A stretch of DNA of 64,000 nt, from the NCBI GenBank assembly GCA_036231405.1, contig JAZAHK010000003.1, positions 220,416 through 284,415 of the forward strand, given 5' to 3'. Each line of letters opens with the position of its first letter. Position 1 is the first letter of the stretch. The notes beneath the pieces are model-generated. The model did not search any database. It saw only the letters and a list, made by a program, of their open reading frames with translations, and was not told where the DNA came from. Origin of the DNA: Nitrospinota bacterium (GTDB taxonomy: Bacteria; UBA8248). Positions 2,956 to 27,434 of the stretch are shown in pieces. Made by a program: the position numbers and the translations under genes.

Positions 2956-3627
2956 TTACTGTGTAGGATCAGTAGAATCAGGAACAGGGAATTCGGTTGG
3001 CCAATTTTCTAACATTGTCTCCATGAAAGCTTTTACTTTATCTGGACTCAAATAGACTGACTTTTTTATTTTATCTACCTCAGACTGATCTTCAACTTGT
3101 ATTCCAAGTGAATCCATGAATCGGTTCCACAAGTTAAAGGTTCCACTCATAAGCGTAAGTTCTACAATCTCATTATCAGAAAAACTATTTTTGACTTTTT
3201 CAAAAACATCGTCTCTGGAACGTGCTGTATTTTTTGTTACATGTTCTGCCCATAACACTGCAGCTTTCTCACGAGCTGATAAAATAGAGGAATCCATATA
3301 ATCATCTCTAACTATAGCTGCAACCTGTTCATCAGTTATTCCTGCCGCTTGTCCAAGCGAAGTATTATGCGCAAGTCAATAATCACACCCGTTAACCTGA
3401 CTCGTTTTAATAATTACCATTTCCTTAATTTTCGATGAGAGACAACTCCCTGCACCTTCTCTTTGCATAACTGCAGTAAAAAGAAGAAAAAACTTCGATA
3501 CCATTGGGATATTCCCTAAAACTCTTACAGAGTGAGGCACTCTCCCAATCATTGCCGTGCTTGCGTCATACAAATCTTTAGTAACTCCTTTTGCATCATC
3601 TAAATCCACCATTTTTATTTTAGACAT
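2956..3627 (-). CDS. AhpD/carboxymuconolactone decarboxylase-like selenoprotein (CxxU), 223 aa; joins track ORFs 3376..3627 and 2956..3297
   Basis: TGA at 3378-3376 falls in NGCDY*LAH, the second Cys of the AhpD CxxC motif. The 26 intervening codons are open and in frame (LAHNTSLGQAAGITDEQVAAIVRDDY). A hairpin follows the TGA, and tRNA-Sec is present in the window. Confidence 0.9.
3345..3360 (-). promoter_or_regulatory. Putative bacterial SECIS element
   Basis: mRNA UCGCUU-GGAC-AAGCGG forms a stem-loop with a G-initiated apical loop starting about 21 nt after the UGA. Confidence 0.7.
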
Positions 3628-3675
3628 CTGAAAAGTCCTCCTTAAAAACCGAAAATTAAAACGTATTGTATAACT

Positions 3676-4278
3676 TCATACTTCCTTCGTAAAAACGTTC
3701 ACATACCAATCTTCAAATTTTCGAAACGCAATAGATCTGTGACTAATATTATTTTTATCTGAATGTGACAAATCTGCGACAGAGCATTTATAATTTGGCA
3801 AATAAAAAACCGGATCATAACCGAACCCATTTTGTCCTTTTGTAGATTCAGTAATTAATCCATCAAGAGACCCTTGAAAAGAATAAAATGTTTTATCAGG
3901 ATTGTAAAAAACAACTACACTTACAAATTTGGCAGTACGCTTTTCAACCGGTATCCTTTCTAATCTTTTCAGAAGCAGGGCATTTTTTTTTCGATCAGAA
4001 AGACCCGGCCCTCCAAACCGTGCAGAGAAAACACCAAGTTCATCGGGGATTGCATCCACTTCTATACCAGAGTCATCTGCAAGAACTGACATCCCAGTTA
4101 ACTCACATGCAGTTTTTGCTTTTAACAAAGCATTTTCAAGATAATTCAAACCTGTTTCCTCAACTGTAATTTTTTGATCTATATCGCTAAGAGTTAAAAT
4201 ATCAAACGGTACGGATGACAGTATATTTTTCACTTCATTTATTTTATGTTGATTATTGCTGAAGAAAAGAATTTTCAT
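3676..4278 (-). CDS. rdgB: Non-canonical purine NTP pyrophosphatase (Ham1/RdgB)
   Basis: Motifs SNNQHKINE, ENALLKA, ADDSG, GFGYDPVF and KNNISHR; overlaps the rph stop. Confidence 0.95.
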   Translation of the reverse strand: MKILFFSNNQHKINEVKNILSSVPFDILTLSDIDQKITVEETGLNYLENALLKAKTACELTGMSVLADDSGIEVDAIPDELGVFSARFGGPGLSDRKKNALLLKRLERIPVEKRTAKFVSVVVFYNPDKTFYSFQGSLDGLITESTKGQNGFGYDPVFYLPNYKCSVADLSHSDKNNISHRSIAFRKFEDWYVNVFTKEV

Positions 4279-5012
4279 TTTTTTGGAAAATAAATCGACT
4301 GTAATTCAATAAGTTCACGTATCCCTTTTTGTGCCAAAGATATTAAACGTGACATATCACTTTTAAGAAAAGGAGTTCCCTCCGCAGTTCCCTGCAATTC
4401 AACAAAATGACTTTTCTCAGTCATTACAATATTCATGTCGACATCTGCTCTCACATCTTCACTATAATCAAGATCAAGAACACAATTTTTATCCACAATA
4501 CCTACACTAATCGCCGCTACTAAACCTTTTAACGGGTTCTCAGAAATCTTCTTTTCTTTCAAAAGTTTGTTCACTGCTCTACAAAGAGCAATATACCCAC
4601 CCGTAATAGAAGCGCATCTTGTTCCACCATCTGCTTGAATCACATCACAATCGACATACACTGTGAAACCATCGAGCGGCTTCAGATCAACAACGGCCCT
4701 TAAGGAACGTCCTATTAATCTCTGGATTTCTACTGAACGCCCAGCTCGAGCCCTATCACGAGAAATTCGATCTGAACCACTCCCAGGTAGCATAGCGTAT
4801 TCTGAAGTCAGCCATCCTTCCCCTGAATTCCTCTTATGTCTAGGAACCCTTTCCTCTACAGAAGCAGTACATAGGACCCGTGTATTTCCAATTTGGAAAA
4901 GTGCACTCCCAGCACAAGTTTTCACATAATCGACTTCTAAACTAATTTTTCTAATTTCATCTGTCTTTCTTTTATTCTCACGGCAAAAATTAGTTTTTCC
5001 ACTTTTTTTCAT
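4275..5012 (-). CDS. rph: Ribonuclease PH
   Basis: Motifs GWLTSEYAMLP, EIQRLIGRSLR, DCDVIQADGGTRCASITG and ELQGTAEG. Start moved to ATG at 5012, which follows a GGAG SD. Confidence 0.96.
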   Translation of the reverse strand: MKKSGKTNFCRENKRKTDEIRKISLEVDYVKTCAGSALFQIGNTRVLCTASVEERVPRHKRNSGEGWLTSEYAMLPGSGSDRISRDRARAGRSVEIQRLIGRSLRAVVDLKPLDGFTVYVDCDVIQADGGTRCASITGGYIALCRAVNKLLKEKKISENPLKGLVAAISVGIVDKNCVLDLDYSEDVRADVDMNIVMTEKSHFVELQGTAEGTPFLKSDMSRLISLAQKGIRELIELQSIYFPKK

Positions 5013-5093
5013 AAAGACCACTCCATTCCACACGTAAGAAATATTCTGAAAATTATTTAAGAATTTAAATGTATTTAAAGTACAGGTTATATT

Positions 5094-27337: not shown

Positions 27338-27434
27338 GGGAGCACATCGGTGCTGGTGTGCCGCCTGGACTTCAAATCCAGTGGACGGGTCTAAACAATT
27401 CGTCGGTGGGTTCGACTCCCACGTGCTTCCGCCA
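27338..27434 (+). tRNA. selC: tRNA-Sec (anticodon TCA)
   Basis: 97 nt; 8-bp acceptor stem GGGAGCAC/GTGCTTCC ending in GCCA; anticodon arm CTGGA-CTTCAAA-TCCAG; long variable arm; GTTCGAC T-loop. Confidence 0.96.

Follow-up and report, generated by a model that had tools for sequence, protein, structure and literature searches.

The window, the 64,000-nucleotide stretch of DNA analyzed here, carries on its reverse strand two short open reading frames, 3376-3627 (83 aa) and 2956-3297 (113 aa), which lie in one frame and raise the question of whether the TGA that separates them ends a gene or encodes an amino acid within one. Translated as a whole, 3627-2956 gives 223 codons whose sole internal stop is a TGA at codon 84 (3378-3376), in the context ...SQVNGCDY-U-LAHNTSLG..., and both translation and ORF coordinates agree with the split described in the initial annotation. 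A Shine-Dalgarno sequence, AGGAGG (3637-3642, reverse strand), is located 9 nt 5' of the ATG at 3627. The Pfam CMD domain (PF02627) matches residues 46-128, a range that spans the TGA, with 47.5 bits versus a cut-off of 23, and the product also scores over the cut-off of TIGR00778 (AhpD core, NCBIfam). Its best NCBIfam match is TIGR01926 (full-length, residues 2-180), with 76.6 bits versus a curated cut-off of 81.8, and neither NF053654 (YciW-related; 58.2 bits versus 310) nor NF041238 (CFYUT (seleno)proteins; 39.5 bits versus 175) is reached. Together, translation, Pfam and NCBIfam matches, predicted fold and homolog conservation confirm, at the level of sequence, that the two short ORFs are one gene (2956-3627, reverse strand) for a predicted small redox enzyme of the AhpD/CMD fold, and that its internal TGA specifies selenocysteine (Sec84).

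The immediate value of this result is the repair of a selenoprotein gene annotation. Mis-annotation of the class had been noted at the outset and was indeed encountered, as gene callers either truncate the protein at the catalytic residue or enter Trp there. Two of four listed RNA runs were examined: the first yielded one 174-nt contig over 3224-3397 with 1 difference, which reaches only 19 letters past the TGA, does not bridge, and carries neither strand nor level, and the second had no match to the gene. A scan for promoters and terminators gave counts at chance level (19 versus 21.0 and 3 versus 3.4).

Codon counts in homologs place the TGA (3376-3378, reverse strand) at the second Cys position of a CxxC motif. 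Among 83 close DNA matches (>150 bits; the copy in the window is among them, and some loci are counted twice), this column holds TGA in 75, TGC in six, TGT in two and TGG in none, so that the expectation of Cys or TGA is borne out in every one of them; a Cys codon also occupies the column in all 31 distant DNA matches. In proteins, the 120 listed of 188 homologs show Cys (82), Trp (18), Ser (2), Leu (2) or a gap (16). Since the best match of each of the 18 Trp proteins is a TGA locus, in three cases at 96-99.6% identity, Trp at this position is most likely an artefact of the code applied by gene callers. The same TGA recurs in records of Alphaproteobacteria, SAR324 and Verrucomicrobiales, and the closest named relatives are Nitrospinaceae / Nitrospinae records. 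Within the same family, all 36 other genomes searched have a match, with TGA in all but four of the matches listed (198 more matches exist).

Conservation does not drop past the TGA, as it should if translation ended there; mean identity over 71 TGA-locus proteins is 53% on its 5' side and 63% on its 3' side. Comparison to a 91%-identical ortholog revealed 29 synonymous and 5 non-synonymous differences in codons 1-83, and 51 and 13, respectively, in codons 85-223, a pattern that indicates purifying selection on both halves of the gene. Codons 85-110, which are in neither called ORF, account for 10 synonymous and 4 non-synonymous differences. Genome-wide, TGA behaves as an ordinary stop that ends 200 of 995 ORFs of at least 300 aa, with a median of 11.5 codons to the next TAA or TAG, and yet codons 85-223 stay conserved; the TGA at codon 84 is therefore not there by chance. 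The locus thus presents an in-frame UGA that is aligned to the Cys of its homologs and conserved on both flanks, as is expected of a selenoprotein.

A bacterial SECIS-type hairpin was identified by folding and covariation at 3345-3360 (reverse strand). It starts 21 nt past the UGA and has a 5-6 bp stem and a 4-nt GGAC loop, in line with the SECIS rules as given in PMC13188914 (3-9 nt loop, 4-16 bp stem, G in loop positions 1-2, 16-37 nt from the UGA). Its free energy was calculated as -13.7 (60 nt), -7.8 (47 nt) and -6.2 kcal/mol (isolated 31-mer), versus a threshold of -7.5 kcal/mol, and in no case was the hairpin more stable than shuffled sequences (z between -0.22 and -1.76). Folding energy, being within the shuffle range, was dropped as evidence for a SECIS element, and covariation alone is counted.

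Among 64 distinct TGA-locus sequences, the five stem pairs are 95.6% intact, and the loop-closing pair 24-29 appears either as U-A (48 sequences) or as C-G (16 sequences), a swap that costs a Gln-to-Arg substitution. None of 500 shuffles reached as high a pairing and slid controls gave 24-60%, although the shuffle test overstates significance because the TGA loci are kin and not independent. The contrast between Sec and Cys forms does not depend on the shuffle count: in 8 Cys loci that encode a near-identical peptide, pairing is 65% and the loop-closing pair is broken in seven. The loop itself (3351-3354, reverse strand) reads GGAC here and in the closest orthologs, and 60 of the 64 TGA loci have GGT there (GGUC loop).

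The machinery for selenocysteine insertion is in place. The tRNA-Sec (selC, anticodon TCA) that had been reported from the window is located at 27338-27430 on the forward strand and scores 75 bits versus a gathering score of 47. Profiles for selA (568.6 bits), selB (391.8 bits) and selD (334.7 bits) all exceed their curated cut-offs, so that selA, selB, selC and selD are all in the genome, and an absence of selA or selB, which would have spoken against the reading, was not seen. The selD gene itself carries one TGA. With regard to gene order, the genes on either side of selC are unrelated to it, a sugar-nucleotide cluster being placed tail to tail with it, and a different contig carries selA and selB.

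In 32 other genomes with the TGA locus, selA was found in 29 and selB in 27. Neither was found in three of these assemblies, which are likely incomplete because two of the three retain tRNA-Sec and a TGA-bearing selD. Where the locus has the Cys form, selA and selB are present in all eight genomes, and three of the five checked also carry TGA paralogs; the Cys form is thus not imposed by a missing Sec system. An alphaproteobacterial Cys-form clade (L030, L031, L033-L038), whose genomes keep selA and selB and in which the hairpin has decayed, constitutes a natural Sec/Cys control pair. On a quick tree, assessed without a root, the Sec/Cys character requires a minimum of 4 changes; 38 of the 97 forks in this tree are unresolved, and no order of events is drawn from it.

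In light of these data, it is highly improbable that the TGA truly ends translation (leaving a pseudogene or two peptides), stems from a sequencing error, or is read as Trp or Gly, even with Trp at column 84 in 18 of the 120 listed homologs and a downstream ATG at 3297 that could begin the 113-aa ORF. TGA is the usual stop across the genome, the same TGA recurs in three further groups of bacteria, codons 85-110 are conserved although they lie beyond both called ORFs, and the hairpin covaries. An alternative code in which TGA stands for Trp or Gly is ruled out by the absence of TGG from all 83 loci, by the normal TGA stops, and by the tracing of Trp proteins to TGA loci. With codon, hairpin and machinery identified, we infer read-through with near certainty: SelB with Sec-tRNA would bind the hairpin 21 nt past the UGA and insert Sec at codon 84.

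A structural model predicted from a 65-sequence alignment (pLDDT 92, pTM 0.89) has an AhpD-like fold. Its best structural match is alkyl hydroperoxide reductase from D. radiodurans (PDB 6k40; Z 20.3, rmsd 2.8, 183 aligned), followed by 2oyo (Z 19.8), 2prr (19.2), 2pfx and 6e8l (18.9), 3c1l (18.6), Bmp8 (18.3), PA0269 (16.3) and M. tuberculosis AhpD (11.7), with structural matches covering residues 1-189 of the model. A two-helix extension at the C-terminus (approximately residues 180-215; 2983-3090, reverse strand), which carries a near-invariant W209, is mostly outside this range.

The alignment of locus proteins locates the active-site motif, C81-D-Y83-U84-L-A-H87-N88, at 3364-3387 (reverse strand). 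C81, Y83, H87 and N88 show no variation among the proteins of 71 TGA loci and 8 Cys loci, which puts His three residues (+3) and Asn four residues (+4) past position 84 in all 79. Glu69 (3421-3423, reverse strand), which aligns to the relay Glu36 of PA0269, is E in 66 of the 71 TGA loci and in all eight Cys loci. The UGA had been placed at the second Cys of an AhpD CxxCxxH motif; the second-Cys column holds, whereas the canonical AhpD motif is CxxCxxxH (PMC3141380) and CxxUxxH is the spacing of this subfamily.

The gene is not alone in its genome. A profile of the subfamily detects eight CxxU genes, with TGA at the site in all eight and CxxUxxHN in six, and a ninth, short one besides. The eight further CxxU AhpD/CMD paralogs (genome G000) are located at C31:5218-5868, C28:52780-53433, C28:49869-50492, C46:95462-96040, C46:220037-220708, C28:67695-68246, C20:6552-7148 and C6:101596-101787; one has the canonical CxxUxxxH, one is without His, and identities, available for seven of them, are 22-56%. 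The notion that all CMD genes here encode Sec is wrong, as TGA is found in 6 of 20 Pfam CMD matches and the eight of eight holds for the subfamily profile only. The database proteins P0004, P0015 and P0122-P0138 are approximately 290-360 aa long and consist of a C-terminal half-domain and a second full repeat in which both Cys are absent. They are possibly two-domain proteins cut at a Sec codon of the first repeat; a metagenome scan for P0122-type two-domain forms returned distant matches only.

A read-through screen of the 2.09 Mb genome suggested about 30 selenoproteins. Twenty of the 21 candidates scanned match an NCBIfam family, including GrdA, GrdB-type, UGSC, OsmC-like, SelW-like, peroxiredoxin-like, DsbA-like and methyltransferase Ogt families, and the remaining candidates were recognized by motif. 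Glycine/sarcosine/betaine reductase selenoproteins are usually associated with anaerobes, and GrdA and GrdB-type members are encoded in this small genome at C40:2017-5128. A strong hairpin also accompanies the gene for an O6-methylguanine-DNA methyltransferase at C33:38290-38829 (reverse strand), in which Sec takes the position of the active-site Cys. Five paralogous OsmC-related selenoproteins share a hairpin (C46:89451-90029, C16:25939-26478, C12:2509-3051, C3:161226-161771 and C15:9423-10010); this five-copy 'GxGFU' group was considered as a new family and rejected, since the one copy of five that was scanned scores 175.5 versus a cut-off of 95 for NF041052, OsmC-related (seleno)protein. 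Nor is the selenoproteome a new record, since BSepDB lists three genomes of the UBA8248 lineage with 48-54 selenoproteins each (PMC13326102), versus approximately 30 suggested here, and the entry with 54 is one of the named relatives mentioned above, and the selenoprotein richness of this group is thereby already published.

What, then, would Sec84 do? In AhpD, the second Cys is the attacking residue. By analogy, the selenolate of Sec84, at the start of helix 82-94, would attack an oxidized substrate, either a peroxide or a partner protein's oxidized cysteine or disulfide, and Cys81 would resolve the intermediate to yield a Cys81-Sec84 selenylsulfide, which a cellular thiol system would re-reduce. 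Glu69, Tyr83, His87 and Asn88 could supply a modified AhpD proton relay. The gene had initially been described as encoding a 223-aa Sec redox enzyme; the length stands, as does Sec, through homologs, SECIS and machinery, and for the term 'redox' the fold and motif make peroxide or disulfide reduction by Sec84/Cys81 the probable chemistry. Counter to this explanation, Asn88 occupies position +4, where the relay His is said to be invariant. No peroxiredoxin or thiol reductase recurs among the 99 neighbors of related loci that were scanned, of 129 extracted. The genome encodes nine or more CxxU paralogs, this one included, and they probably differ in substrate.

Upstream of the gene, Ham1/RdgB (rdgB; 3676-4278) and rph (4275-5033), identified by Pfam and locus comparison, are conserved throughout the family and mark the orthologous locus. 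Downstream, after a gap of 31 nt, is a homolog of the D,L-2-haloacid dehalogenase DehI (2070-2924; E 6e-17 to 3bjx), followed by a TauE/SafE-family membrane protein assigned by Pfam (1254-2027); all four are on the reverse strand. The DehI homolog is found near the gene in 12 of the 78 loci examined, the window's own included, and is kept adjoining in the closest relatives. It carries Val at the catalytic Asp column, here and in all 7 other readable loci, and was consequently rejected as an active hydrolytic dehalogenase. Elsewhere, neighbors of homologs include transporters, amidohydrolases and dehydrogenases, and in one Rhodospirillales record the homolog is directly followed by a fusion of a pyridine-nucleotide oxidoreductase with a SelD-like domain (L011:1030-3294, reverse strand).

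Two other chemistries were considered. Deiodinases are selenoenzymes, and the protein could by analogy be a Sec reductive dehalogenase like the AhpD-fold debrominase Bmp8. In that case, the selenolate would take Br or I from an organohalide of marine origin, with Cys81 resolving the selenenyl halide and His87 protonating the carbon. The sequence of Bmp8 (PDB 6ohi) contains C-x-Y-C-x-x-H and shares the +3 position of His, as opposed to +4 in PA0269 and four further AhpD-like proteins, and its fold matches that of the model over 174 residues (Z 18.3, rmsd 2.6). This spacing is, however, common, as 53 of 149 distant representatives have His at +3 and 19 have it at +4 only; the protein is 17% identical to Bmp8, and six other structures have equal or higher scores. 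In addition, according to the PDB title, C82A was the variant used for the substrate complex of Bmp8, a mutation of its first Cys, whereas Sec here is at the second. The adjoining DehI homolog is suggestive, but its Val at the catalytic Asp column and the different neighborhoods outside the closest relatives weaken this argument, and no bmp bromopyrrole cluster is present at the locus, whose neighbors are rph, rdgB, the DehI homolog, TauE and ZnuA. We thus regard Bmp8-like dehalogenation as quite unlikely, and it is equally doubtful that the CxYUxxHN subfamily, with its numerous paralogs per genome in this marine lineage, would as a whole represent selenium-dependent reductive dehalogenases, Sec counterparts of Bmp8 performing deiodinase-like chemistry on the unrelated AhpD fold. 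If true, dehalogenation would link the use of selenium in the sea to the turnover of organohalides.

It also appears unlikely, if somewhat less so, that the Sec protein has another redox role that does not involve peroxide, for instance the repair or reduction of some particular small metabolite, of a metal(loid) or of a target damaged by hypohalite, within catabolic pathways encoded beside homologs. The transporters, amidohydrolases and dehydrogenases at those loci would fit such a role, as would the substrate specialization suggested by at least nine divergent CxxU paralogs in a 2.1-Mb genome, and the subfamily has invariant residues and a C-terminal extension of its own. No single substrate is directly pointed to, however, and among the 99 of 129 neighbors scanned no one family is found repeatedly in different lineages, rph-rdgB being the exception within the family. 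Of the chemistries considered, reduction of a peroxide or disulfide is the likeliest.

In PA0269, which has weak peroxidase activity, the proton relay is formed by Glu36, Cys48, Tyr50, Cys51 and His55, the last of which is called invariant (PMC3141380), and the AhpD cycle proceeds from a sulfenic acid to a disulfide (PMC4674687). E69, C81, Y83 and U84 align to E36, C48, Y50 and C51 without gaps, and the helix-pair core is shared both with PA0269 (Z 16.3) and with M. tuberculosis AhpD (Z 11.7). The protein differs from both in that the second Cys is Sec, His is at +3, Asn is at +4, and ahpC is not a recurring neighbor. The top fold matches (6k40 and the TIGR01926 peroxidase-related proteins 2oyo, 2prr, 2pfx and 3c1l; Z 18.6-20.3 over residues 1-189) are Cys-only enzymes. 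In PA0269, 2gmy, 2pfx, 2prr and S. pneumoniae AhpD, His is at +4, in contrast to +3 here, and alignment to 2pfx and 2prr requires a one-residue gap past the motif. Thus, the relay Glu and a Cys-x-x-Cys in the helix pair are present, but as His is absent from +4 we do not file the product as a canonical AhpD. Bmp8, a dehalogenating CMD homolog (PMC7918430; PDB 6ohi, 6ohj), has the same fold and the C-x-Y-C-x-x-H spacing, which is not specific, and differs by its low identity (17%) and by a complex mutant that affects the first Cys, with Sec here at the second. The shifted relay His is thus common to the subfamily and a debrominase. Since the subfamily also offers natural Sec/Cys pairs, with Cys forms in Sec-competent genomes, the role of Sec in AhpD-fold enzymes would be cheap to test.

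The closest parallel is with the AhpD-like CxxU selenoproteins, which, as the initial annotation had it, are a described class. They were reported in 2005 by Zhang, Fomenko and Gladyshev from 27 sequences (PMC1088965), are abundant in the ocean, with 299 'AhpD-like 1' (COG2128) sequences in GOS (PMC2398784), and are listed under TIGR01926 in a 2026 review (PMC13188914); the portions of the selenoproteome literature examined give no tested substrate for them. As compared by descriptions and not by member sequences, the protein differs from the 2005 class in a TIGR01926 score just below the cut-off, in being approximately 40 residues longer, and in its C-terminal extension. It shares Sec at the second Cys, the AhpD/CMD fold, a UGA with a downstream bacterial SECIS, and widespread Cys homologs. 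From its sequence and modeled fold, the product is predicted to work like AhpD, within the broad AhpD-like selenoprotein class, and its CMD/AhpD domain with a CxxU motif makes the gene an added member of an enzyme class known from marine bacteria since 2005.
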